NCBI GenBank assembly: GCA_963733675.1 | Contig: CAVTET010000012.1 | Span: forward strand, 32,001-96,000 | Length of the DNA stretch: 64,000 nt | From: an uncultured Methanosarcinaceae archaeon | GTDB lineage: Archaea; Halobacteriota; Methanosarcinia; Methanosarcinales; Methanosarcinaceae | Direction: 5' to 3' | In this document: piece after piece, positions 5,147-46,022 of the stretch | Position numbering within the stretch: position 1 is the first letter of the stretch | Layout: every line of letters starts with the position of its first letter | Notes under the pieces: generated by a model | Seen by the model: only the letters and a program-made list of their open reading frames with translations | Told to the model about the DNA's origin: nothing | Database searches by the model: none | Translations under genes and position numbers: made by a program

Positions 5147-6470
5147 AAGATTCCATTTACTTTTTTTTCTTTGAAGGAATCTCATCCAAGTCTTTCCAGC
5201 AAATTTTTGTATTTGCCCTTATTTTTTCTCGTCTCGTTCAAAATTCATTTATTTCAAAGATTCTTCCACTATCTTGTACTGGGTGTGGTATATGGGACGT
5301 TTGAAGTGTCAAAAAACTTATGAAATATAAATATTTTATTATGTTACAGATTTTATTTTAATTGGAAAGCACCTTTCGATGAATTTGAATAAGATCTTAT
5401 TTGAGAAAAGTATCAAATTTTATCTTAAAACCTGATAGTAGCATAGTAAATACTCAAGCAAAAATTACTTCTGTCAATATTCTCAAGTTACCGAATTATT
5501 AAGAGATTAATATTAACAATATACACTATATAAAACATTATTTTAAATACTAAGTATTTAGAAAGTGGTATTGATAAGCTGTTGCTGTGCTGTGACATTA
5601 ATGTAGAAAAAAAGTAAATAATGTATCAAAACAGTTAATGATCAAATAATTTATTGTTAGATTCTAAAATTAGTCTAGCTTGTATTCTAAATGTATTGCA
5701 TTGTGAAAAATTTGTAGAATTGGATGAGGCTTTAATATTCGGCAGAACAAATTAACAAGTTAGAACAGGGGAAACGATGGTCAAAAAAAGGAATAAAAGC
5801 AATTTGGTGAATACTAGAACAAAACTTATAATTCCATGCAAAAATGGAGGGGTATGTATAAAAAACCCTAAAAATACAGCAGATATAATTTGCAAAGGAT
5901 GTGAAAGAGAAACAATATGATAAAACATTGCTATTATGGTATGAGCTTCTTAGGTTTGTTTTAAATTCAGTGCAAAGACATTTCTTCAAAAATTATTGTT
6001 TCCTCACAGCATGCACTTAGTAACACGAAAACATGATTTACATAATACTCAAAAGATACTAAAATTGAGTTTCGATATAATATTTAAACTACATGAAGTT
6101 TCACCACAAATACGACTATTTGAAATTAGTTCATATGTGCCAGCAAACTTAAGTATTACAAATCTTATACGATTAGATTTTTTTGTCTTCTTGAATTATT
6201 TGCACCACATTATAATTATCCAAAATTTTAACTGTTCATATTAAGCATCATTTGTATTAAATTAAATCACTTTTGTACCAAAAACCATCTTTTTGCTTCA
6301 GCTAACACTTTGCGAATAGATATTAACAGTAGTTTGAAATCAGTATTTAATTAGGACTATTGAAAATAATTTAGTAGACCTATGCTAAATCTGTAGTTGA
6401 GTTTCCCATTTTCTTTGAATTTAACTTTTCAAGTGCAGTAGTCTCCAAATTTGTTCAGAAAACCTCATTT

Positions 6471-7346
6471 TTACATCAATCCCAGTCCTGGGCCTAAGTT
6501 TGGAATTATCCCAAACAAAAAAATGTTTATCAAGCCATTAATCATTATTACAAATGGAAGGTTCTTGGTTCTATAAAAGCAATAGCCAAGAAAACCCCCT
6601 ACAAGGGAAGCAAATACCATTTCGAAGGGAGTGCCGTAACTAGAGTGCATTATTCCAAAAAGAAGGCTTGCTAGAAGGATTCCACCTGTCGACCCTACGA
6701 ACTTTTCCAGCCTTTTTTGGAGGATCGCCCTGAAAATAAATTCCTCTATCAGACCTACTATAAATATCATTATGATTATAAATAAAAGTACATTTGCCGG
6801 AGAGATGTCTTGGATAAGGGATCTGTTTCCAATTACCATATATTCTGCTTCCCCAAAAACCAGGCCTGCAAGGATGGCTAGAGGCACCTGACTCAATATT
6901 TTTTTAAGAGTATCTTCTTTTTTCTTAAATGTGATTTTCTGATGGTTGATAGCGATTACTAAAGGAATTGTCAGGGGTGCATAAATGAATACAAAAGAGT
7001 AAAGATTAATCTCGGAAAAAATTGGCATTGAAAGGTTTACCAGTCGAAAAATTGGCAAAAGCAGAAAAGCCTGGTGAATTTCGCGTACTTCCTGTTTTTT
7101 CATAACTGTGGTAGAAAATGAAAGGATCAATAGAAGAAAGGTGTAAGCTATAGCAGCCTCTTCTAACCTTCCTTCGAAAATCAACAGTTCGGAAAAAATG
7201 ATCACAATTATAGGGGTCCCTGCGTAGAACATCTTTTTCAAGAATCCGATCTTTTCTTCGGTTAAAATTTCAAAGGTTTTTACTAGTTCCGGCAAAGTGA
7301 TATTTCCTACTTCTATCTCAGACGGTGAAGAGTCTGCTGATACCAT
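6471..7346 (-). CDS. CPBP-family intramembrane glutamic endopeptidase (CAAX protease-like)
   Basis: Multiple TM helices; EEFIFR and FGIMH motifs. Confidence 0.88.
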   Translation of the reverse strand: MVSADSSPSEIEVGNITLPELVKTFEILTEEKIGFLKKMFYAGTPIIVIIFSELLIFEGRLEEAAIAYTFLLLILSFSTTVMKKQEVREIHQAFLLLPIFRLVNLSMPIFSEINLYSFVFIYAPLTIPLVIAINHQKITFKKKEDTLKKILSQVPLAILAGLVFGEAEYMVIGNRSLIQDISPANVLLFIIIMIFIVGLIEEFIFRAILQKRLEKFVGSTGGILLASLLFGIMHSSYGTPFEMVFASLVGGFLGYCFYRTKNLPFVIMINGLINIFLFGIIPNLGPGLGLM

Positions 7347-31114: not shown

Positions 31115-32542
31115 ATGGCAAAGTGGATGAGTGTTGCACAGGTTAAAGATCAAATTGAAGAAAGCTCAGCCGAAGAAGTAATATCCAGCTACCTAGAAGT
31201 TATAAGAAAGAGCAAAATTAATGGCTATATATCAGTTTCTGAAAAAGCTATTGAGCAGGCAAAAAAAATAGATAATGAAGGGCAAGACGGTCTTCTTGCA
31301 GGTGTACCAATCGCAATAAAGGATAATATTTCCGTAAAGGGGCTCCCAAATAGCTGTGGTTCGAGAATCCTTGAGGGCTATATTCCACCATTCGATGCCC
31401 ATGTTGTAGAAAAGCTTCTTGTTGCGGGCGCCGTAATCCTTGGGAAAACAAATATGGATGAATTTGCAATGGGATCCTCTACGGAAACCAGCTATTTTGG
31501 ACCTACTGCAAATCCCTGGGACCTTGAAAGGGTACCTGGAGGATCTTCTGGAGGCAGTGCAGCTGTTGTTGCAGCAGGAGAAGCACCTTTTGCACTTGGT
31601 TCTGATACTGGCGGATCTGTACGCTGCCCTGCGGCTTTCTGCGGCGTTGTTGGGCTTAAACCAACCTATGGGATAGTTTCTAGGTATGGAGTGATTGCTT
31701 ATGCAAATTCCCTCGAACAGGTAGGTCCTCTTGCGAACAACGTGGAAGATATCGCAATTCTCATGGATGTTATTGCAGGCTATGACCGCAGAGATTCTAC
31801 TTCAATTGACAGAAAAATAGCATATCAGAAAGCTTTGGTTAACGATGTAAAAGGTCTGAAGATAGGGATTCCAAAAGAGTTTTTTGGAGAAGGTATTCAC
31901 TCAGATGTTGAAAAGGCGGTATGGAATTCTATACACAAATATGAAAGTCTTGGAGCGACCTGGGAAGAGGTTTCAATGCCCAATATAAAGTATGCTCTTG
32001 CTTCATACTATATTATTGCAATGAGTGAGGCATCCTCAAACCTTGCCCGTTTTGATGGAACACGCTATGGATTTAGAGAGAATTGCGAAAACTGGAATGC
32101 TATGGTTTCAAAGACAAGAGCTGAGGGCTTTGGTACAGAGGTGAAGAGAAGGATTCTTCTAGGAACTTATGCTCTTTCTGCGGGTTATCATGATAAATAT
32201 TATTTAGAAGCTTTGAAGGTCAGAACCCTTGTAAAACAGGATTTTGATAAAGCTCTTGCAAAATTTGATCTTCTAATGGCCCCGACTATGCCGAATCCTG
32301 CTTTCAAGATCGGAGAAAAAATTGAAGATCCTCTAACTCTCTACCTCTCAGATGTGAATACCTGCCCGATAAATCTTGCAGGTGTACCATCCATTTCCAT
32401 ATCTTGTGGCTTTACTGACGGTCTTCCAATTGGGCTTCAGATAATAGGGAAGCCCTTTGAAGAGCTAACTGTCCTAAGAGCTGCGTACACGTTTGAGCAG
32501 AATACCGATTACCACACAAAGAGACCCTTAGAGGTGGCATAA
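31115..32542 (+). CDS. gatA: Amidotransferase subunit A
   Basis: [43 protein letters not shown]. Confidence 0.98.
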
Positions 32543-34301: not shown

Positions 34302-35159
34302 GGTTATGTTGCAAAAATTCATAATAAGGATTCAATTGAATAACGAGAAAATCAATAGAACGATAATATGCTATCTAATTCCTTTAAGTGGAAACATTAT
34401 GAAGGAGAAATTATCCTATTAAATGTAAGGTGGTATTTAAAATATCCATTAAGCTATCGGAATTTAAAGGAAGTGATGATAGAAAGAGGAGTACAAGTTG
34501 ATCATACTACTCAAATGAGATGGGTGCATCACTGAGATCGAAAAGAAGGTACGTAGGTACTTAAAGCCAACCACCGACTCTTGGAGAATGGACGAAACCT
34601 ACATCAAGGTAAAGGGTGAATGGAAATATCTTTACAGAGCAGTTGATTCAACTGGAAGCACAGTTGATTTTATGCTAAGTGCAAAGCGTGATAGAACTGC
34701 TGCGAAACGTTTTTTTAAGAAAGCTTTGAGTTCTAATCATAATCAAATTCCAAAGGTAATAACTGTAGATAAAAATCTAGCTTATCCATCTGCAATAAGT
34801 GAACTCAAAAATGACAAAGTATTACCTAAAAACGTAAACCTTCGGCAAATCAAGTATTTGAATAATGTTGTTGAACAGGATCATAGATCTATAAAACGGA
34901 TAATTCGTCCAATGTTAGGCTTTCAGTCTTTTTGTACAGCTATCAAGACTTTAAAAGGAATTGAAATCATGCATATTATAAGAAAAGGACAGATTAATGC
35001 TCTAAATCGATGTGTTCTTTCTAAAGTAAATTTTATAAATAAGTTATTTGGAATAACTGCCTAAATTTAAATGTTAGCTGAGAAATATTTTGCATTTTTA
35101 TGTTTTTGCTGTTAAACTAAAGTTTTTACTTCAATAGTAGGATTTTTTGCAACAGAACC
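34302..35159 (+). mobile_element. IS6-family insertion sequence, frameshifted transposase (34368-35064)
   Basis: TIRs GGTTATGTTGCAAAA / TTTTGCAACAGAACC; short deletion near 34530 relative to the copy at 3581. Confidence 0.93.
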
Positions 35160-35784
35160 AGAAATGGAGAAATGCTAATAAGCAGTAGTGGCAAAAAGGC
35201 TTCCAAATTCAGTATAGATAAATCAAAGTTTAATTTCTGGTCCTTATTTGATAAAGAGTTTATCTTCCTGAAGGATGCCTGATAAGATCACAAAGGCAAC
35301 TGATTATTTTATTCCCATACTATTCTCATTTATCCCAAAATATTCCCGTTATATTCCCATTGAAACGTAATCCGTTGACATTTTGTTCCCAAAAACCCGA
35401 AAATGAAAGAAAGAAATAGAAAATTACACTTTTTGACATTCTCATATTTTGGATATTACTTTAAAAAATCATATATCATTTTTTTTATTTTGGGAACATA
35501 ATACCCTTTTTTATATGATTTTAAGTTCCTTGTTATTGTTTTTATATTATTTCTAATGGGAATATAATGGGAAAATAGCGGGACTAATCGGGAACTAATG
35601 GGAATATAAATAACGGAGACATATTTGTAATAAGAAGTATATAGGAACGAACATTATAAAGCCTATGATATCTCATTTTCCATTTAAGATTGTGATTCAA
35701 CTTAATTAAGCCGATTGACAACAGGCCTTTTTTGTCTGTTAAATCTCAGAATGAAGATGTTCATAAATTTAAAATTATATTTCA
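35160..35784 (+). repeat. Repeat A copy 1: protein C-terminal stub plus origin-like inverted iteron array
   Basis: Colinear with 41338-41960; encodes ...MLISSSGKKASKFSIDKSKFNFWSLFDKEFIFLKDA* followed by TTCCC/GGGAA arrays. Confidence 0.9.
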
Positions 35785-36341
35785 GAAGAGCCAATTATTC
35801 CACTCGCGAAAAATATGCTTTAATAGTAGCCTTCACTAAGATTGATTGAGCAATTTTCAGTGGGCTGACTTTTATTTTATCAATTCTTTGAACTTATTTA
35901 ATCTCTCGAATGTCTCATCTTCAATCTTCTTCAATTAATTTCGCGATTAAGAGAAATCAAAGCAAATATTCCTATCAAGATACTCCAAAATGCACTGCCA
36001 ACCATGTCTGTACCCAAAAGATGTACCGTTTGCATTACTTTATTTTGTCATCGAGCACATAAATCACAACCAATGCGTCGTCGAAAGCCATCAACTACTT
36101 AGTTTTTTTAATTTAAATTCCCAGGCTGATCTCAAATGCTAAAAAATTGATCTTCAGCTGCAGGTGAAGAGAATCCTGTAGCCTGCCGAAAAGTCTACTG
36201 CAAGGTACGAAAGACCTATAAGAGATAAAAAGATTCAACTAATTATATATTTTTTGCATACATTCTAAATAAAAATATCAGAAACTGAAGAGTATAATAA
36301 TTGAGGTGATATCTCATCCCAAAATCCAAGTAAATACCCCT

Positions 36342-36555
36342 TCATATTTATTTATATATTGTAAAAGTAATAAAAATATATGAAAAATATCTGAAGGGTA
36401 CTACCGTGCTGCAGGATTAATATAATCGGGATTCCGTTTTGGTCCGAAAAATGACTTATTCTGGAGTCGCTGATGAGACTTTTATTGACCGTCTATTCAT
36501 ATACTTATTGTCATAGTCAAAAAATGCCTAAAATCGCTCCACAATCAATCTTCCT
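36342..36555 (+). repeat. Repeat C copy 1 (non-coding)
   Basis: AAAGTAATAAAAATATATGAAAAAT...TACCGTGCTGC...TTGGTC..AAAA..ACTT...GAGACTTTTATT; also at 40261 and 43721. Confidence 0.8.
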
Positions 36556-36579
36556 TAGTTTATTAGTTCCCACAGGCGG

Positions 36580-36760
36580 CCAGGTGGATTTAAAATTTAA
36601 AAAAAGTTAATCTTATGAGCTGCGGGGGAAATACTTACAGCCCAATGGAAAGTCTACTAGAAGGTGGGGAAACCTATAAATTATGACTAAGTTTGATCTC
36701 TGATATATCTTTTTGATATAGTTGAAATAGCACCAAATTGAATTTATTAATATTAATTTG
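36580..36760. repeat. Repeat B copy 2
   Basis: AATCTTATGAGCTGCGGGGGAAATACTTACAGC. Confidence 0.7.
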
Positions 36761-36908
36761 TTATTCGATTTTAAAACTTTTAATAGGCAAGTAATTTTTA
36801 TTAAAAAACAAATTTTTGAATTATTAATTTAAAAACTAAGTAAGTAATCTATACACTATAGTGTAAAGTAAATTCATATGGAAGCTAATTTTTATGGAAG
36901 TTGATACA

Positions 36909-37428
36909 ATGATTAAAAGTAATGCTCTAATACAGATAGGTTCACTAGAGCATTCAAAAGCAGCTGATGATTATGTAACAAATTTAATTAATATATTAAA
37001 TACCAGACGCACAAGTCGGAAAATTGATGAAGGCTAAGAGCTGGGAAATGTCAAATGTTAATCTTAAAACAATAACCGGGGAAGTATTTTCAAGTATCAC
37101 AAATAGTAGTTTGATAATAATTATATATTTTGATTCCAGAAATCAGGCTGAGAAAGGATTGATCACTTATATTGCAAATTTTACTTCTAAATGTAATTAT
37201 GAATCATATCATCCAGCTGGAAATAGTGACCTCAATTTTTTGACAACAGAATTATTGGATATCAATGGGCATCCCATCTACTCTGAACAGCTTACTCCAG
37301 ATTGCGTGATATCTTGTGTAGATTATAATAGTCGTAGGGTCTTCAGTGCAGATTATCCACCAAACTTATTTGATAATGCAAATCAGCCGTTGGTAAATTA
37401 TTCTGAAATTGCTCTGCAAAAATGCTAA
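36909..37428 (+). pseudogene. Hypothetical protein, probably frameshifted near 37025
   Basis: Short ORF MIKSNALIQIG...KIDEG* overlaps the 134-aa ORF in another frame; no recognisable family. Confidence 0.4.
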
Positions 37429-37610
37429 TCCCAAAGGGCTAAACTTTTTGGAGCTAATTTTAAAGGAGCTTATCTTAGGGATGTTTATCATTTAACATTT
37501 TACTAACTTTTTCAAGTAAAAACGCTTCGTAATATGCAATTGGATAAGACGCTACGATCACAACATGTTCTGTGAGTACGTATCTCAAAAGCAGTGAGGA
37601 GATATCCAAT

Positions 37611-38006
37611 ATGGCATCAACAACAGATAACGGAATCATCAACAAGCTGAGCAACCATTCGGTTGAGCAGACAGTGGAAAGGCTCAAGAGTATTCTGCAA
37701 TCCAAGGGAGTCACTCTGTTTGCGCTGGTCGACCACAGTGGAGAAGCGAAAAAGGTTGGAATGAGCATGCTTCCGACCAAGCTGTTGATTTTTGGCAGTC
37801 CAAAGGCTGGCACATCTCTTATGCTGGCCGCTCCTAGTATTGCCATCGATCTGCCTTTGAAGATTCTTATTTGGGAAGATAGCAAGGGTAAAGTTTGGGT
37901 TTCATACAACAGCCCTGACTACATTAAGGAGTGACACGGTCTGCCTCAGGAGTTGTTACAAAATATTGCCATCATAGAAACAGTGGCAGTAAAGGCAGGA
38001 GAGTAG
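37611..38006 (+). pseudogene. DUF302 protein with premature TGA at 37932-37934
   Basis: VDHSGEA, LLIFGSPKAGT, IDLPLKILIWE; the reading frame continues *HGLPQELLQNIAIIETVAVKAGE to TAG at 38006; GAGGAG SD. Confidence 0.85.
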
Positions 38007-38430
38007 TATTAATCCCTTGCTTACTTTGATATCCTTAAATCGAAAACGGATCTAAAGCCCAAATTAGATCCTATCCGAAATTTGTCTCTTACGCGTAGAA
38101 TAGTAAAAACCTAATAAACCTGTGATGTTTAGACAGTTGGGGATTTTCCATATATTTTTATTTCGCTACCTAACTAAAGAATAAAAAATCCTATTTAAAA
38201 ATCTAGGTAACTGTATATAACTTAGTTTATATTATTATCTAACAAATGAAATAAAGATAATATGTAAACCTAACAATTACTTCATTTTTCTTTATTATTT
38301 ATCAGTCCCGTAACATAATATTTTTCCCAGCTATTATAAAATCTGTAAATATGTCCAGATTCCGCAGACTTGACAGAGCCATTTCACGCTTGATCTTTTA
38401 AAGTTTTTCCATAGGTTTTTATTGTTTTGT

Positions 38431-39294
38431 CTAAAACAGTCTAAGCGAAAATTCTCCACCACTTTTGATAGTAAAGGCTGCCGCTCCTCTGTGCCCTCCT
38501 CCACCATATTTCTGCGCTATCTCAGCACAATCTATAGAGTCTGATCTAAGCGACACCTGGACCATATCATTCATCATCTGCCACATAACAGCTATATCAT
38601 ATTCTGGTTTTTGGTAAACATACTCTCCAATGTCGCTAGCATCGGTTGTAGTATTGATAAGTCGCGCTCTCAGTCCGTGAAAGTCGATATCTGTGCCCCT
38701 TTCGAATGCTTTCTCAATTTTAACTTTCCGGACATATGTGAGTGCATGCCCAACTCTCAGATAGAGTTCAACTTTTTCATTTTCATGATTACACGATGCC
38801 AACAAATCTTTCCAGTCTGCATCTTCAGGGGAATGAAGAAGAATTTGGCAAGCTCCAGTAAAAGCTGAAATTTCTTCTTTCTTGTCTCCGAATTGCCATA
38901 CGTCTCGCTTTGAAATGTACTCAACTGTTGTAGGAAGTGGGTGACCGCTTCTAAGATATTCCCATGTAAGTTGGGAAGCAGCTTTTGTGATATCCCGTTT
39001 TCCAAGAATGTTCAAACCCCACAATTCCTTATTTTCTTCCATTGCAGTCTTGTGGTGATCTATCCATATGAGTTTTTGTCCTGTTATTTCTGCAAGAGTT
39101 CCCATATCAGTAAACGTGAAATCAAGAACGTAGACTTCATCAGCTTCTTCTATTTCTTCTTTTTTCCATGTAGTGCCATTGTATTGCACCGCAATGCACC
39201 GTATCGGGTTGGTGGTGATGTCTTCCATCGACTCCCTGACCTGAGCTGCTGAGCACTGACCATCAAGATCATCGTGATAATATAGAACAATCAT
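38431..39294 (-). CDS. DHH/DHHA1 family phosphoesterase
   Basis: YHDDLDG, VLDF, WIDHHK, SLRS, GGGGHRGAAAF; AAGGAG SD before ATG at 39294. Confidence 0.92.
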   Translation of the reverse strand: MIVLYYHDDLDGQCSAAQVRESMEDITTNPIRCIAVQYNGTTWKKEEIEEADEVYVLDFTFTDMGTLAEITGQKLIWIDHHKTAMEENKELWGLNILGKRDITKAASQLTWEYLRSGHPLPTTVEYISKRDVWQFGDKKEEISAFTGACQILLHSPEDADWKDLLASCNHENEKVELYLRVGHALTYVRKVKIEKAFERGTDIDFHGLRARLINTTTDASDIGEYVYQKPEYDIAVMWQMMNDMVQVSLRSDSIDCAEIAQKYGGGGHRGAAAFTIKSGGEFSLRLF

Positions 39295-39736
39295 TCTTTT
39301 ATACTCCTTTAGCGAATACCGCATATTAGACTCGCTGTATCCTAAAAATTCAGCCATTTTTATTAGCAGATTGAAGTTAATGCAAAAATCAATCGAATTT
39401 AAGGCATATTTCACGGCTGATTTTCTAAACGGTATTAGATCATTATCATAAAGCTCTTTGGCTTCTTCTTTTTGTTAGATTAATATTGATTTCTTCATCT
39501 TCTTTGATTACAAGAATATTTCACTTCATAGTACTTTAGTACTTTAAGAGAGAATTCGAATATTTTTCTCTTTTTTGAAGCCTATATATTGCATTTCAGA
39601 ACGTTTCTATGCAATATTTGCCCAAATATATTTAGAGTATCTTTGTGTTCTGACGCTTTTTTTGCAGGATTTATTGTAAAAAGAGTATGAATACTTTCTT
39701 TCAAAATGAAATTCCATCGGCTTTATTTAATTAACT

Positions 39737-39950
39737 AAGGTGATCTGGATGATATTGAATATCAAAAAGGTGATCTGTGAGCTGCTTGCGAAGGGGATGC
39801 ACACAGTTCGATCGGTTATTTAATTTAATTATATAGGAAAATTTATTAATTATAATTTGATTTAATTGAGTATATAATTTGTGAATATATTATACTAACT
39901 TAAACTCATTATTATTGCCATTACATGATTCTGATCTCACAGATTATAGC
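39737..39950. repeat. Repeat B copy 3
   Basis: CAAAAAGGTGATCTGTGAGCTGCTTGCGAAGGGGATGCACACAGTTC; colinear with 1310-1520 over about 200 bp. Confidence 0.7.
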
Positions 39951-40260
39951 TTATCTTATATTATCTTATAAAAATAAAAATTAGTGTAACAATCTTACGA
40001 GTTGACCTACATATGTGAGCTTGACTAAGTGTGGGTGGAACTTCATGCCGTCTTATGCTTTTCAATTAGTATCAACAGCAAACATTTGTAAGTTTCTTGA
40101 TTAAATTAATTACTGATACTTACGTCTTTTATGGCTTTATTTACATAACATTTTTGTGGACCATAGGCAGTCATACTAAATTCATAAATTCCTAGAGTTT
40201 AAATCCAAAAACTTCAAATACATTTCCCGAGTTCTTAAAATCAAAGTAACTATATTCCAT

Positions 40261-40595
40261 AACTTAATTTATATTATTCCAAAGTAATAAAAATATATAG
40301 AAAATGTCTTGAAGGCACTTACCGTGCTGCTGAATTTAGATAATGGGGAATTAATTTGGTCTAAAAACGACTTAACATGAGGCCACTAGTGAGAAGACTT
40401 TATTAGAAGTCTAATGTTAGGTTCATTATCATACTCAAACAATCGCATACTGCTCCTGAGAATGGCTTCTGCTTGATTTGATGTATATACCCTCGCTTCG
40501 ATATAGAACAAAAATAACTTAATATTAAATATAAGCTTAGCTAATATCAATCATAAAAAATAAAAACCGGTGTTCACAATTGCACGTCCATCATT
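40261..40595 (+). repeat. Repeat C copy 2, ending in a terS-like start stub (ARPS)
   Basis: Colinear with 43721-44050; ends GGTG...ATT GCA CGT CCA TCA versus GTG GCT CGT CCT TCA. Confidence 0.8.
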
Positions 40596-40619
40596 ACTTT
40601 TATAAGGGGTGATTTTAAT

Positions 40620-40766
40620 ATGGCAGAGGAAAAAGATCAAAGTGAACAGAAAGAACTTAATAAGGATTCTCTGGAATCATTGCTTAAAGAAAATCAAAGA
40701 AAACAGGTTCGTTCAGATTATCGGCGTAGTCTGGGCAGCGAAGCTGGCAGAAGATACAAGGAATGA
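40620..40766 (+). CDS. 48-aa small charged protein (below ORF-track cutoff)
   Basis: GGGGTGA SD, then MAEEKDQSEQKELNKDSLESLLKENQRKQVRSDYRRSLGSEAGRRYKE*. Confidence 0.55.
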   Translation: MAEEKDQSEQKELNKDSLESLLKENQRKQVRSDYRRSLGSEAGRRYKE

Positions 40767-41337
40767 ATTAATAAAAAAAGTATTAAAGTATAACGATTAA
40801 TACATTATGCAGAACAGATTACTAAGCTTTCAAAAGTAAGTTAGATGCTGTTGGTGTGTGCAACATCAACGGTATTTTTCTACCAATTCATGATGAACTT
40901 TGATTTCCATAATAGTCAATTTTTGCAACACTCAAACCAATAATCCAAGTTCCGTCATATTGCAATTAAGCATTCTTTGGATGTGCGCTTAATAGGCTTA
41001 CTATTTTTGCCTCAATGTCCTACCTTTAACAATTTCTATATCTGATAGACCAACGAACTATTAAATATCGTTGAGCTATACTCATACTTAAGCCCATTAG
41101 CAATCAAATTCTAATCACTTGGATTTGTAGTTGTTTTTGGTCACCATAATTAAATAGATATAGAGTTACAACTAAATATTCATAACTCGGTAGAGCTGCT
41201 TTTAGGCAATTTATTGATACTCGTTCATCAACTTATACCCCCTACTCCAATGTCAAAGCAAAAAAGATCCAAACAACGTTGCGAAATAATATTTGCTTAG
41301 AACTATTCAGAATATTTATATAGACTGCAAGAAGGAA

Positions 41338-41960
41338 AGAGATCTCTTAATAAGCAGCAGTTGAAAGAAAGCTTCTAAATTCAGCATAGACAAATCAAAG
41401 TTTAATTACTGGTCACTCTTTGATAAGGAGTTTATCTTCTTGAAGGACGCCTGATCTATGCACAAAGGCAATTAATTCTTTTATTCCCCAATTTTCCCTT
41501 TTTTTCCAAAATATTCTCGTTTTTTTCCCATTGAAACGTAATCAGTTGGCATTTTGTTCCCAAAAACCCGAAAATGCAAGAAAGAAATAGAAAATTACAC
41601 TTTTTTGGACATTCTAATATTTCGGATATTACTTTAAAAAATCATATATCATTTTTTTATTTTGGGAACATAATTCCCTTTTTTTATATGATTTTAATTC
41701 CCTTGTTATTGTTTTTATATTATTTTTAATGGGAATATAATGGAAAAATAACTGGAATAATTGGGAACTATTGGGAATATAAATCACAGAAGACATACTT
41801 GTAATAAAAAAGGTACATGAACGAACAATTATGGAGCCGAAGATATCATATTTCATTATTTGTGATTGTGATTTAGCTTAATTAAGCAGATTGACAACAG
41901 GCTTTTTTTGTCTGTTAAATCTCAGAATGAAGATGCTCATAAATTTAAAATTATATTTCA
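41338..41960 (+). repeat. Repeat A copy 2: protein stub plus origin-like iteron array
   Basis: ...LLISSS*KKASKFSIDKSKFNYWSLFDKEFIFLKDA* followed by the same TTCCC/GGGAA arrays. Confidence 0.9.
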
Positions 41961-42384
41961 TTATTTTGATTTAATAATAAGAAAAATAAATTCTGAATAA
42001 AATACTGTCTATTATTCTTCAATCTTTTCGATCTGTTCGTTTTAGACTACAATATACCCAATGAGACTCAGCAAAATGCCTTAAATCTCTACACAATCGA
42101 TCTTCAAATATTTTATAATATTACTTCTATTTAAGTAAGTATGTAATCATAGAAACTCAAATTAGCTCTTGAAATCCCTCATCTAATTTGATGCTCGTTT
42201 CTTTTAAATATTCATTGCCGAACGATAGCATAGGTACATATCGACTCGTTCGGCAGCCTATTCGCTCACTTTGTCAGCGATCCAGGCAACTTCGTGTAGA
42301 TAAATAACACTGGTTCATTGTTCTGGACGTTGTCTTTTCTCCACTTCTAGCCAAGTTTATACTCCTGCAAAGCTAAATAAAAAC

Positions 42385-42921
42385 TTATTTTTTCTCGATG
42401 ATCCCACAGATAACCCTGTCACCACTGTTTCCAGCAGGGTTTGTCATCTCATCATCAGGATTAGCATGGATAACCAGTGAAGTACCGTTGGCTGTGAATA
42501 GCGTGGTCGGCCCTGGTGACAATGTCACAAGGGTGGTGGTGATATTCATATGTCCCATACCATCCACCCCCACTTCTAAATTCGGCAAATCACCTGCATG
42601 AGGGCCTTTCTGGTTGTTGAGACCATGCTCTTTGCTCAAAGGGTTGTAGTGTTCGCCGGCCGAGATGAACGACGGCCCAGTGCAGTTTCCTTTATTATGA
42701 ATATGGATGCCGTGCAACCCCGGGGTCAAGCCGCTCGTGTTTACGTTGATGCGAACCAGGCCACTAGCGTCCTCGGTAAAGTTGGCTAGCCCCACTGTAT
42801 TGCCCTTCACGTCCTTCAAGGTAGCTATGGCATCATGTGTGGCCCCTTCATAAGCACAGATCGTAGGTGCAGCCATCAGCATCGTCGATATAATCATTAC
42901 TAATAACAATCCAGTTTTCAT
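42385..42921 (-). CDS. sodC: Secreted Cu/Zn superoxide dismutase
   Basis: HGIHIH, C...AGEHYNP, EHG, PHAGDLPN, VIHANPDD, GNSGDRVICG; all metal ligands, the Arg and two Cys present; signal peptide; GGAGGA SD. Confidence 0.93.
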   Translation of the reverse strand: MKTGLLLVMIISTMLMAAPTICAYEGATHDAIATLKDVKGNTVGLANFTEDASGLVRINVNTSGLTPGLHGIHIHNKGNCTGPSFISAGEHYNPLSKEHGLNNQKGPHAGDLPNLEVGVDGMGHMNITTTLVTLSPGPTTLFTANGTSLVIHANPDDEMTNPAGNSGDRVICGIIEKK

Positions 42922-43720
42922 CAGTCATTCCTCCAAATTTTTATAAATTAGTAATCAGAATTATTTAATGCATCAAAATGGACATCAGACTTCATAGTAG
43001 GCAAGACTCCCACATATCTAATGTAATCAATTACTGGATACATTTTCCCCATCTCCTAGATCCCTCTGAAATAAAATATCTCAAATTCCGTGCTTGTTAG
43101 GTTATTACAATTTAGGTTTGCGTTGAATTTTGATACCCACAATTCCTGTAGATCCCTTATAGGCACCGTCATATACAATAGAATATACACGATTGAACCA
43201 AGAAATCTATAACTTATGCACTTAAGGACCAAAATCAAGCAACTTTTTAAACCAAAAACTGTCTAAATTTGCTCGTTTTAAGTTACAGTACACAATTGCT
43301 TCTTATTTATTTTAAATTAATTATACAAAAAATAATTTCTAAATAAAAATTACTTCCCCATAAAATGTTTTAAAACCAAAAAACAATTTTATATTAATTA
43401 TATTTTTATTCTACTCAGAGATCTTCACAAATTTAACACTGAGCTTTTATACATTGTACCTAAAAATCTGTAAATTCTGAGTGACTCTGTATCGATTTAC
43501 TTAATCACAAAAAAAGATGTAGAGTCAACAGCTTTACTGATAAAAATTCTGTTTCTATTTTGGAATCTTAATATAAATCTCTATATAGGATTTTCTTTCC
43601 AATCATCTTGTGGATAATATTAGCCAAAATCTTAAAGCTCTGGCAATTACCTTAGAACATTTCAATTCCTATAGCCTAAACGATGGCTTCTTATCTAATA
43701 GGATGAAATAAATTTTTATA

Positions 43721-44033
43721 AAACTTAATTTATATACATTTAAAGTAATTAAAATATATGAAAAATTTCTCGAAGACACTTACCGTACAACCACATTTAA
43801 AACATGGGGAATTAAATTGGTCGAAAAACGGCTTAAATGAGCTTACTAGTGAGACTTTTATTGAAAGTTTAATAGATTATTCATTAAAACGGTAAAAAAC
43901 GGCTTGTAGCGCCCGAGAATGGCTCATTGTTGATTTGACGTGTATAAACCCCGCTCCTATGCCGAACAAAACGAACTAAATATTCAAATACAAGACTAGT
44001 TAATATTAATTGTAAAGTAAAAACGGTGATAAT
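43721..44033 (+). repeat. Repeat C copy 3, directly upstream of the terS-like gene
   Basis: Colinear with 40261-40580. Confidence 0.8.
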
Positions 44034-44480
44034 GTGGCTCGTCCTTCAAAATTGACTCCGACTATACAAAAAAAGAATAGGTGATAATATTGCACTCGGT
44101 TTGACTTATCGGTTGGCTGACGAATCGGCTGGTGTAACTTACAAAACGCTAAATGATTGGCTTAAAAGGGGGCAGACAGAGAAATCTTGGAAATATTGTC
44201 AGTTTTATAAATATATCTAAAAATGTAATGCTGATGCCGCTAAAGTTCTTTTGGAATGCATAAACGAAGCAGCCAAAGACGGTAACACGCAAATGTGTAC
44301 TTGGATTCTTGAATGTCGTTTCAGCGAAGACTTTGGAAGACGAGTATATAGAAAAACTAATGTTGTATCAGAAAATCTAAATCAGATGTGATTGTTGATA
44401 TAGTAATCAATGATGCAGATGGCATTAGAGCACAGATTCTAGAGAAGTTTGCTTTTGGTAGAGAAAGTCAAGAGCCTTAA
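44034..44480 (+). pseudogene. Terminase small subunit / DNA-packaging HTH protein-like pseudogene
   Basis: VARPSKLTPTIQK/IGDNIALGLTYRLADESAGVTYKTLNDWLKRG...Y..FY...INEAAKDGNTQMCTWILECRFSEDFGRR; GGTGA SD; two frameshifts and one TAA. Confidence 0.7.
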
Positions 44481-44595
44481 AATAGTTAATATTCTTGTTC
44501 TAACCGGCCCTATTTTTAAAAATATTAAAAGAGTTTTAAATCACACATTATCGCCTAATTGTGGAATTGGTTTTGGTTATAGATAGCCATTAAAA

Positions 44596-45930
44596 TTACT
44601 TTTCATTTTTAAGCATGGCTTCCTTTAACTTTGAAATTTCATCAAGCTCCGTTTGTAATTCGTTCTTCATTCCCCATATTCTTTCAAGGTCTGAATATTT
44701 CATATAGTCGGCTTTGATAGATTCGGTGGCTTTCATTTTTTCTATCTCCGCCTTGAGTTCATGCAACTCTACTCTTTCGTCTCTTCTTTCCTGTGTCATA
44801 ATGTCAGTACTTCGCTTGTATGCATCCTTGTCTCCCTTCATTTGAACGAAAGCAGGGTGCTCAGTAGGATCTATTGACTTTTCAATAGTTAGATATGAAA
44901 TATATTTTGTATACTCTTCTTTCAACTTCTCAGGGGACGCTCTGTAATATGCTTCATGTGTCGCATCCAACTACTGGTGCCCGAATAAGAAATCCACAAA
45001 AAATATACTGGCATGTTCATTGAGTAACGTAGTATTAAAGAATCTCCTCATATTATGTGATCTGTTGACATTATATTCCCCACTCTCTGAACTGGTCTGA
45101 GCCTCTTCATTCAGTCTTTGATAAATTGATATTATCGTTTTTTTACCTAGCTTTCTGAGCTCTTCTTGATCTTTCGTTTTCTCAGATGTTAGATATTCGG
45201 AAGGCACAATCCTTGTGACAAACAGATATCCATCTTTAGTAGTCATATGTTGTTTTTCGAGTCGTTGCTCTTTTATTTTGCCATTATAATTAGGTTCCCT
45301 ATTTCGCCAATTAAGATAGTCCTGAATTGCTTTTGAAGCTTCTGGAGACAAAAAAGTATAGAAATTCATAGTTTTTCTTTTTTCTAAGCAGATGTAGCGT
45401 TGTTATGCCTGTTGTTGGGTCACAACCATCTACGAAATCACTAACGTTAAGATTAGAGATGTCCACAGCACTTAATCCACTACTAACGCCCACTAACACA
45501 AGAGCACGTTCAAGGGGATCACAAACATTAAGAATTTTTCTTATATCATCCTTAGTTGGTATTTTCTTTCGTTTTAATTCTGGTCTTGCATTTGTTGTAC
45601 CTTTTGGGAGTACTGGCAACTGAATATTATACAATCTCTAAAACGAGCATACTCCAGTCATTCTGCTTTTAATAGTCAGTGGAGCAAGATCTTTTCTCTC
45701 TAATTGTTCTCTAAACTCTCGGAGATAATGGTTATATTTCTCTCACGCATCAAGAGTCCAGCCCGAATCTCTGTTTCAGCTTCTTCTATAAGCTGTAATG
45801 GCGTTTTATGGGTGAACTCAGTAAATTGCTGCATTGATTGCAGATACATCTTTCTTGTATCATCAGCCGCTTTGATTCCGGATAACCAATCCTTAATTAT
45901 TTTGTCGGTTTTTAACTCTTTAACTTTCAT
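44596..45930 (-). pseudogene. Tyrosine recombinase/integrase pseudogene
   Basis: Four ORF pieces: SSGLSAVDISNL, HLLRKK, RSHNMRRFF (HxxR), FLFGH, AYY (catalytic Tyr), C-terminal coiled coil; two frameshifts and an in-frame TAG at 44971. Confidence 0.9.
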
Positions 45931-46022
45931 TTAAGATCGCATCCTAAAATAAATACCTTCACAAATTTATAAGTGTATTTGAAAATATCTAATAAAAGGA
46001 AATTTAGATCTGCTCCTTAAAT

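Follow-up and report, generated by a model that had tools for sequence, protein, structure and literature searches.

Bacterial iteron plasmids of the pPS10, R6K, RK2 and P1 type carry replicon-specific words for their replication initiator protein (Rep) beside an AT-rich unwinding region; these words are direct repeats of 17 to 22 bp, and a dedicated winged-helix initiator recruits the host helicase DnaB. In the satellite phage P4, the primase-helicase alpha recognizes short words in direct and inverted orientation (ori, crr, type I iterons) through a C-terminal DNA-binding domain. Closer to the subject of this study are the staphylococcal pathogenicity islands (SaPIs), whose replicon consists of a primase (pri), a helicase-initiator (rep) and an origin that always lies downstream of pri and rep. 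This origin is about 300 bp long and has iterons of five or six nucleotides, set in opposite orientation on either side of an AT-rich region and bound by the winged-helix C-terminal domain of Rep; in some elements pri and rep form a fusion, and Rep of one type (SaPI2) is homologous to MCM (bioRxiv 10.64898/2026.10.17.759575). The Sulfolobus plasmid pRN1 encodes ORF904, which combines a primase-polymerase (Prim-Pol) and a superfamily 3 (SF3) helicase with a winged helix, and an essential cis element with dyad symmetry lies downstream; the report on it describes a stem-loop of about 100 nt, 54 bp downstream of the gene, without iteron arrays and conserved as a structure, in which its authors found no sequence motif (PMC4234260). 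Here, we describe a repeat module that occurs twice in a 64,000-nucleotide stretch (the window; positions 32,001 to 96,000 of contig CAVTET010000012.1) from an uncultured Methanosarcinaceae archaeon. Judged from comparative sequence evidence and by analogy, we consider it likely that this module is an iteron-type replication origin read by the winged helix of a Rep encoded directly upstream, and thus an archaeal analogue of the SaPI pri-rep-ori cassette.

Each of the two copies of the module in the window, copy A (35284-35680) and copy B (41455-41870), has an array of five TTCCC-like units and one of five GGGAA units in inverted orientation, with an inner inverted pair and AT-rich DNA between them. 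In both, the module start falls 27 to 30 bp past the stop codon of a rep remnant, which in copy A is the TGA at 35281-35283. The arrays of copy A span 35310-35608. Its left units carry TTCCC at 35312, 35343 and 35354, TCCC at 35333 and a degenerate TTCTC at 35323 (unit 2), while the five right units carry GGGA at 35558, 35569, 35580, 35590 and 35600. The inner repeats TGTTCCCAAAA (35384-35394) and TTTTGGGAACA (35488-35498) form a perfect 11-bp inverted pair. A repeat search recovered the outer inverted arms at 35307-35361 and 35555-35609 (55 nt, 73% complementary, 193 nt apart) and the inner arms at 35380-35406 and 35476-35502 (27 nt, 78% complementary). Nearest-neighbor energies placed the least stable 30-mer of copy A at 35462-35491, just left of the inner-right unit. 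Copies A and B align from approximately 35174/41350 to 35784/41960 with a mean column identity of 89%, and the module copies part into different flanks past about ATATCACATTTT.

An earlier sequence-only reading of this DNA had listed five left units, five inverted right units and a perfect inner pair in copy A, and we read these elements almost base for base as described. The recurrence of the architecture at about 41483-41780, after a stop codon, was likewise borne out, with the layout of copy B lying directly past the TGA at 41452-41454. The proposed unit length of about 10 to 11 bp suits the right array, whereas the left units are 9 to 11 bp apart, the value varying with register. The structure had been drawn from 35283 to 35784; it extends to about 35680, and 35680-35784 belongs to a separate repeated segment. 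Finally, the AT-rich core had been placed inside the inner pair. This DNA is indeed AT-rich, but the AT-rich element conserved across families lies between the inner-right repeat and the right array, not solely inside the pair.

Chance or low complexity as the source of the pattern was ruled out by cluster counts in the genome and by a chain statistic. Clusters of at least four TCCC or GGGA words within 60 bp occur only 29 times in the 3.92-Mb genome, and a TCCC cluster followed 100 to 350 bp on by a GGGA cluster was found genome-wide only at four of the five full module copies; copy B lies just under the exact-word threshold. The chain statistic scored 6-mers with at most one mismatch, repeated in steps of 9 to 12 bp and accompanied by an inverted partner array, against dinucleotide shuffles. 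The value of copy A was matched by 1 of 50 shuffles, and for copy B the statistic settled on a different word and was hence uninformative. When 7-mer clusters were scored with no spacing rule, real AT-rich sequence could not be told from shuffled, and shuffles scored up to 7 to 8. Searching Rfam over 35000-42100 returned a single subthreshold match (MEG8_3, 18.3 bits against a gathering score of 40, E value of 0.43), which we took as chance.

The sequence-only reading had suspected that the protein upstream of the module is replication-related, and the stubs in the window do match the C terminus of a Rep with primase, helicase and winged-helix parts. By tblastn they correspond to the last 40 to 43 residues of a 744-residue protein (77 to 80% identity). 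Pfam and PHROGs searches of the two rep fragments of a further genomic copy (copy C) gave no significant match; domain identity was derived from full-length homologues only, with the 744-residue protein P0004 as the reference. Longer homologues numbered 53, with identities down to 42% and typical lengths of about 540 to 890 residues, and they are named bifunctional DNA primase/polymerase wherever the source gives a name. P0004 carries a Prim-Pol domain at residues 12-181 (Pfam PF09250, E value of 1e-14); other relatives have a DnaG-type primase (Zn ribbon, DNAG_N, Toprim) or an NrS-1-type helix-bundle domain in its place, and an HTH_24 winged helix lies near the C terminus in relatives. An AlphaFold2 model of P0004 built from a 53-sequence alignment (mean pLDDT of 84.2) was compared with the PDB by Foldseek. 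All 50 structural matches listed were MCM (AAA+ superfamily 6) chains, the best with an E value of 1.3e-9, and no SF3 helicase was among them. Structural alignment with the Sulfolobus MCM-DNA complex (6mii_A) covered model residues 327-636 (Z score of 22.3; root mean square deviation of 3.4 Å over 281 residues), and several MCM alignments extended to residue 742, across the winged helix. A profile of 15 homologues searched against all PDB chain sequences gave nothing better than an E value of 0.067; SaPI Rep sequences were not compared directly. As modeled, a single Rep chain joins a Prim-Pol primase to an MCM-like AAA+ helicase, with a winged helix at the C terminus. Such a domain plan is known in mobile-element replication proteins, and it has been proposed that their winged helix recognizes the origin (PMC5862659).

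To place the module in related genomes, we scanned one genome per species and obtained 12 loci from Methanosarcinaceae and Methanosarcina metagenome-assembled genomes. The module lies directly past the rep stop codon in all 12 (82 to 88% identity). At one of them (L010) the order is tyrosine integrase, ORFs without known function, rep (744 residues), module and unrelated genes. Another (L015) is syntenic with copy B of the window, since a Cu/Zn superoxide dismutase gene lies downstream in both, and its rep is in three pieces. Among 13 near-full-length rep loci, the reading frame is intact in five; the other eight (L011, L013, L015, L016, L028, L032, L034 and L042) have premature stops or frameshifts and have kept the module. 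It thus seems that decay of rep with retention of the putative origin is common in related genomes and metagenomes.

We then asked how fast the module changes relative to the gene that precedes it. Across the five intact loci, pairwise identity of rep was 0.932 at codon positions 1 and 2, 0.773 at position 3, and 0.800 at third positions where the amino acid is unchanged. The module core reached 0.869, above the rep third positions in 10 of 10 pairs, and the flank beyond the module fell to 0.602. By this comparison the module is under purifying selection and changes more slowly than the synonymous sites of rep. Finer resolution came from 27 unique close copies, taken from 30 matches of at least 330 bp (7 shorter matches were dropped). 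The sequence-only reading had suggested comparing iterons with spacers across homologues, and the cores proved the more conserved in both arrays: the left cores scored 0.908 and their spacers 0.827, the right cores 0.966 and their spacers 0.904, with register 0 the best of 11 phase shifts in either array.

Distant relatives kept the layout and replaced the repeat word. A metagenome scan with the 15-sequence profile gave 44 loci, from which we chose ten whose Rep was 41 to 54% identical and aligned to the C terminus (query residue 736 or beyond) and which had at least 500 bp of downstream sequence. All ten show the same plan directly after rep, nine cleanly and one (L056) more loosely. After an outer-left array of three to six direct units come the inner-left units, one or two in number, then a spacer rich in purines and in A, then a single inner-right unit or a pair of them in inverted orientation, and finally an AT-rich interval and an outer-right array of three to five inverted units. 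The word itself is TTTCCCC in L038, TTTTACC in L039, TTTTTACA in L043, L045 and L047, ATTATACA in L049, TTTTAAC(A/G) in L050, TTTTGCC in L052, TTTCTCA in L054 and, at a spacing of about 20 bp, AATTGTAAA in L056. The right-array spacing of 11, 11, 10 and 10 bp recurs in L050 and L054, and the others come close to it. The chain statistic exceeded all 50 shuffles in 8 of the 10 loci and was equalled by 5 of 50 shuffles in L045 and by 22 of 50 in L056. From the inner-right unit to the first outer-right unit, the distance is 66 to 68 bp start to start in every family (ten modules), whereas the inner units stand anywhere from 75 to 140 bp apart. The AT-rich interval within this fixed distance, next to the right array, measures 55 to 61 bp with 78 to 85% A+T across families, and the least stable 30-mer sits inside it in 9 of the 10 modules tested. 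At the level of sequence, a replaced word within a preserved layout is more decisive support than the conservation of cores over spacers.

Other features accompany the arrays. A polypurine tract (AAAGAAAGAAA or, in others, GAGAGAGAG) follows the inner-left repeat, at 35406-35416 in the window, and was present in 8 of 8 distant families against a shuffle mean of 2.7. By eye, we noted a box like TATCGGTTGACA(C)TTTTG beside the arrays in L038, L039, L049, L052, L054 and L056 and at 35362-35383 and 35611-35627 in the window; its occurrence in families with differing iteron words suggests that either a conserved portion of Rep or a host factor recognizes this site. Boxes like TATCGG..GACA, resembling the copy A box GAAACGTAATCCGTTGACATTT, were also spotted by eye in distant families. 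An unbiased 11-mer search across families was dominated by AT-rich words, with shuffles reaching 8 of 8 families, and recovered neither the TATCGGTTGACA(C)TTTTG box nor the TATCGG..GACA box. In L038, a tandem, GC-richer unit of about 68 bp (…CTCCTGTGATCCTTGCAGGCTTCCAGGTTGCAGGCCTTGCCGG…) runs from approximately 440 to 746 bp past the rep stop codon, to the contig end.

The elements that carry the module differ in most other respects. The N-terminal primase is exchanged among them, being a fused Prim-Pol, NrS-1-like, DnaG-type, absent, or encoded by a separate upstream ORF (L043). A tyrosine integrase is a neighbor in L010, L045, L049 and L054. In L050, a T4-type large terminase (positions 5452-6795; Terminase_6N, E value of 2.7e-30; Terminase_6C, E value of 2.3e-17) is located some 1.4 kb downstream of the DnaG-type Rep and the iteron module that follows it, and no integrase was found among the ORFs scanned. 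The terminase points to a tailed virus, and L050 is a probable tailed archaeal virus using the same replication cassette. Helicase, winged helix and downstream module are the sole constants across elements. The carriers are most likely small integrating plasmid-like or virus-like elements of Methanosarcinaceae, with the putative origin directly 3′ of rep.

All sequence-level parts of the SaPI origin description (bioRxiv 10.64898/2026.10.17.759575) recur here, and on this ground we propose that Rep docks on the arrays; the sequence-only reading had already likened the helical spacing and the position after a putative rep gene to SaPI and plasmid origins. The two systems share the place of the origin, or putative origin, just behind the primase/helicase gene or genes, its length of about 300 bp, and short opposed iterons to either side of AT-rich DNA (82 to 83% A+T in copy A); in both, the primase is fused to or separate from the helicase. 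SaPI Rep is a ring helicase (SF3 or MCM-like) whose C-terminal winged helix reads the iterons; the Rep described here has a predicted MCM-like helicase and C-terminal winged helix and would form rings by analogy with the SaPI proteins. The differences are the archaeal host, the added inner inverted pair, the fixed 66- to 68-bp AT-rich interval on one side only, and the carriers, which are integrative plasmid-like elements, including at least one contig with a terminase, and not phage satellites. What is known, then, are SaPI-like iteron origins; what appears to be new are archaeal elements with an MCM-like Rep, the inner pair and the one-sided interval.

Other described replicons are further removed. 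Plasmid pRN1 shares with the elements described here an archaeal host, a single Prim-Pol/helicase/winged-helix protein and a cis element just downstream of its gene, but has an SF3 helicase in place of the predicted MCM-like fold and a stem-loop in place of short words at helical pitch. P4 is bacterial, has two separated cis regions (ori and crr) and uses another helicase class. Compared with the bacterial iteron plasmids, the words here are 5 to 9 bp long, they stand in two inverted arrays, and their presumed reader is the helicase itself. The small Methanosarcina acetivorans plasmid pC2A, from the same genus and the basis of current shuttle vectors, has neither a primase-helicase nor such an iteron origin, and the replicons are unrelated. 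The RepA of pC2A is a nicking protein that binds supercoiled DNA, and the plasmid is proposed to replicate as a rolling circle (PMC9569500). We rejected a replicon of that type because the Rep described here is a primase, MCM-like helicase and winged helix and not a nicking protein. In Methanomicrobia, small integrated prim-pol elements encode another protein, arCOG07809, whose helicase belongs to superfamily 1 (PMC4158269). At the level of title listings, the literature on Methanosarcina and iterons, and on archaeal plasmid iteron origins and primases, yielded no description of the present origin. A chromosomal origin with Orc1/Cdc6 and origin recognition boxes was rejected on gene context, since the adjacent gene is a mobile-element rep and not orc1/cdc6, and because there are five full genomic copies and a link to an integrase-bearing element.

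Several observations weigh against an origin of this kind. In the close family, cores stand out only modestly from spacers, because the whole 300 bp is about 91% conserved in close copies. The predicted recognition helix differs among word groups and is nearly identical in the three TTTTTACA loci; this co-variation of helix and repeat word is suggestive and lends indirect support to specific binding of the iterons by the Rep C terminus, but it is confounded by overall divergence. Just past rep, the most distant relatives, L059, L060, L061 and L065 (Rep 31 to 40% identical), have no such arrays; their Rep has an extra C-terminal domain of about 225 residues, and the next gene follows at once. 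The region after rep was ambiguous for arrays in L057, and L058 offered too little sequence. No free circular form was found, terminal overlap being present in 0 of 18 whole contigs, and tblastn of Rep against plasmid and phage collections gave no match. To these we add the AT-rich stretch upstream of the right array, which resembles an archaeal TATA region, and the single-stranded DNA fold of 35300-35615, with a minimum free energy of −42.4 kcal/mol against a shuffle mean of −25.7 (z score of −4.94; 0 of 100 shuffles as good). The TATA resemblance would fit a transcriptional control region without origin function, in which the AT-rich stretch is a promoter with TATA box and transcription factor B recognition element (BRE) and the arrays are operators for Rep or a small repressor over the following gene of the circular element or virus. 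The 55- to 61-bp interval does contain TTTATAT-like words just upstream of the right array, and in L050 an ATG-initiated frame begins about 25 to 30 bp past the last right-hand unit; other genes follow in L039 and L054. We nevertheless regard this account as unlikely. The 17 aligned Methanosarcina-type copies run into at least three unrelated continuations 70 to 80 bp beyond the right array and share no conserved gene downstream. The structure also has two sides, and since rep ends at the left array, that array is left without a gene to control. The unit, finally, is linked to the 3′ end of rep and not to any downstream gene. The constancy of the module with helicase and winged helix only likewise argues against a downstream-gene operator as the primary role. 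Iteron plasmids often unite origin and autoregulation, and a dual role as origin and promoter/operator is possible.

If the fold were what matters, the functional element would be a hairpin or cruciform of the inverted arms, recognized as a structure and not through its words, as proposed for the pRN1 origin (PMC4234260). We think this quite improbable. The outer arms are just 73% complementary over 55 nt, and the inner stem alone is unexceptional (z score of −1.73; 10 of 200 shuffles fold as well). The arm-to-arm distance varies among families while the one-sided 66- to 68-bp distance is fixed, and a word repeated four to six times per arm at 10 to 11 bp is unneeded for a hairpin; repetition at helical pitch inside an arm is what would be expected if protein docks along a single face of the duplex. 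Recombination or transposition sites, that is, integrase or excisionase arm-type sites near attR or the inverted ends of a small nonautonomous mobile element that reached five places in the genome, are a very remote prospect. In integrated copies the module does lie at the element edge, within about 80 bp of the end of homology, with a tyrosine integrase at the other end in L010, and several copies are almost without rep. But both arrays are on one side of the junction and so do not flank a crossover site, the arrays are internal and not terminal, and the left boundaries vary with rep remnants of differing length, a sign that the copies decayed independently and do not represent a mobile unit with fixed ends. 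In L050, moreover, the module follows rep with a terminase downstream and no integrase among the ORFs scanned, and the constancy of helicase, winged helix and module again argues against integrase arm sites.

For an iteron origin read by Rep, we propose the following course of events, with winged-helix binding, oligomer loading, melting site and origin activity all drawn from analogy with SaPI Rep proteins. The winged helix of each Rep subunit would read one short repeat word, and five words one helical turn apart would seat one ring-shaped Rep oligomer per array. Since the arrays are inverted, two oligomers would then face each other across AT-rich DNA, and melting would most likely occur in the fixed 55- to 61-bp interval beside the right array. 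The primase domain would make the first primers, after which host polymerases could take over.

In the genome of the window, the module has outlived its gene. We searched the assembly (15 contigs, 92% complete, 3.92 Mb) and found five full module copies (A to E) and three fragments. Comparison of their 14-kb contexts defined a repeated unit of about 520 bp, made up of the last rep codons and about 400 bp of noncoding DNA and ending near 35680. The left edge varies among copies, with rep remnants of approximately 40, 43, 70, 147 and 420 codons. The best rep of the genome is that of copy C, which keeps 304 and 153 residues with a frameshift and has lost residues 1 to 325; tblastn with Rep found no intact rep in this genome. 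With their own rep cut down to some 40 codons and no intact rep elsewhere in the genome, both window copies are, on this sequence evidence, orphan relics. Directly upstream of copy A, at the point of rep truncation and adjoining the stub, lies an IS6/IS240-family transposase fragment (34588-35064, plus strand; DDE_Tnp_IS240, E value of 6.6e-45). The same insertion-sequence family was seen within 7 kb of the module copies or fragments D, E, F and G.

The surroundings of the two copies add a few observations. A second repeated segment (TTAATTAAGCCGATTGACAACAGGC...) at 35676-36296 and 41866-41960 follows the module in copies A and B, partly in copy D, and in several related loci; it also stands alone elsewhere in the genome (e.g., G000 C3:325988-326113), and other related loci continue differently past the module. 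The segment may be an att region or belong to the adjoining part of the element. Some 2.7 kb past copy B, three adjacent short ORFs (44596-45634, minus strand; Phage_integrase E value of 3.3e-4 for the middle one) look like parts of a broken tyrosine integrase, possibly one more remnant of an integrated element. The stretch from 35000 to 46000, between gatCAB and purine genes, has low coding density, and its only Pfam matches are the three proteins listed at the end of the table. No tRNA genes were found in the window, and thus no tRNA integration target was seen. The public sequencing runs containing this stretch were soil-metagenome DNA only, with no RNA run among those listed.

Table. Features of the two module copies and neighboring genes in the window (tblastn coordinates refer to P0004; conservation is the column mean over 27 copies)
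Feature	Position	Strand	Basis or remark
Copy A, rep 3′ stub, last ~40 codons and stop	35160..35283	+	tblastn, residues 705-744, 80% identity
Copy A, outer-left array, five direct TTCCC-like units	35310..35358	+	Sequence reading, repeat search, conservation
Copy A, conserved box GAAACGTAATCCGTTGACATTT between outer- and inner-left repeats	35362..35383	+	Conservation 0.927
Copy A, inner-left repeat TGTTCCCAAAAACCCG	35384..35399	+	Conservation 0.928
Copy A, central A-rich, polypurine spacer	35400..35487	.	83% A+T
Copy A, inner-right repeat TTTTGGGAACA, inverted partner of 35384-35394	35488..35498	-	Conservation 0.983, highest of all segments
Copy A, fixed-length AT-rich interval, candidate DNA-unwinding element	35499..35554	.	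82% A+T
Copy A, outer-right array, five inverted GGGAA-like units	35555..35608	-	Spacing 11, 11, 10, 10 bp
Copy A, module tail up to divergence of copies	35609..35680	.	Conservation drops to 0.81, then 0.75
Copy B, rep 3′ stub, last ~43 codons and TGA (41452-41454)	41320..41454	+	tblastn, residues 701-743, 77% identity
Copy B, outer-left array	41482..41529	+	TTCCC at 41484, 41494, 41525; degenerate units between
Copy B, inner-left repeat TGTTCCCAAAAACCCG	41555..41570	+	Sequence reading, A/B alignment
Copy B, inner-right repeat TTTTGGGAACA	41660..41670	-	Sequence reading, A/B alignment
Copy B, fixed-length AT-rich interval	41671..41727	.	84% A+T; contains least stable 30-mer of copy B
Copy B, outer-right array	41728..41781	-	GGGA at 41731, 41763, 41773; two units decayed to GGAAA, TGGAA
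Copy B, module tail	41782..41870	.	A/B alignment, copy comparison
DUF302 protein	37572-37934		Pfam
DHH/DHHA1 phosphoesterase-like protein	38431-39414	-	Pfam
Cu/Zn superoxide dismutase	42385-42921	-	Pfam

A bolder version of the Rep-read origin, which we hold as doubtful, would make Rep an archaeal self-loading MCM-family helicase that finds its origin by way of its C-terminal winged helix and, as two facing rings on the arrays, melts the fixed 55- to 61-bp AT-rich interval in the absence of Orc1/Cdc6, with orphan origins staying competent and being fired in trans. A related incoming element with the same TTCCC word would then fire the five chromosomal orphan origins, and such firing could lead to local over-replication, or to interference with the incoming element by titration of Rep.

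Because the window copies are decayed orphans, the interest lies in the family and not in this locus. For annotation, a multicopy noncoding repeat of Methanosarcinaceae would be explained as decayed mobile-element origins. An intact cassette of rep and module, about 2.7 kb in length, could seed a second Methanosarcina shuttle-vector replicon, unrelated to pC2A. At least nine natural pairings of word and winged helix in one geometry would form a set for studying how a helicase-borne winged helix reads DNA, and the system would offer a simple setting in which an MCM-like helicase melts an origin with no separate initiator involved. If the module is the origin that we propose, methanogens would have in it their first defined origin of a Prim-Pol/MCM-type replicon.

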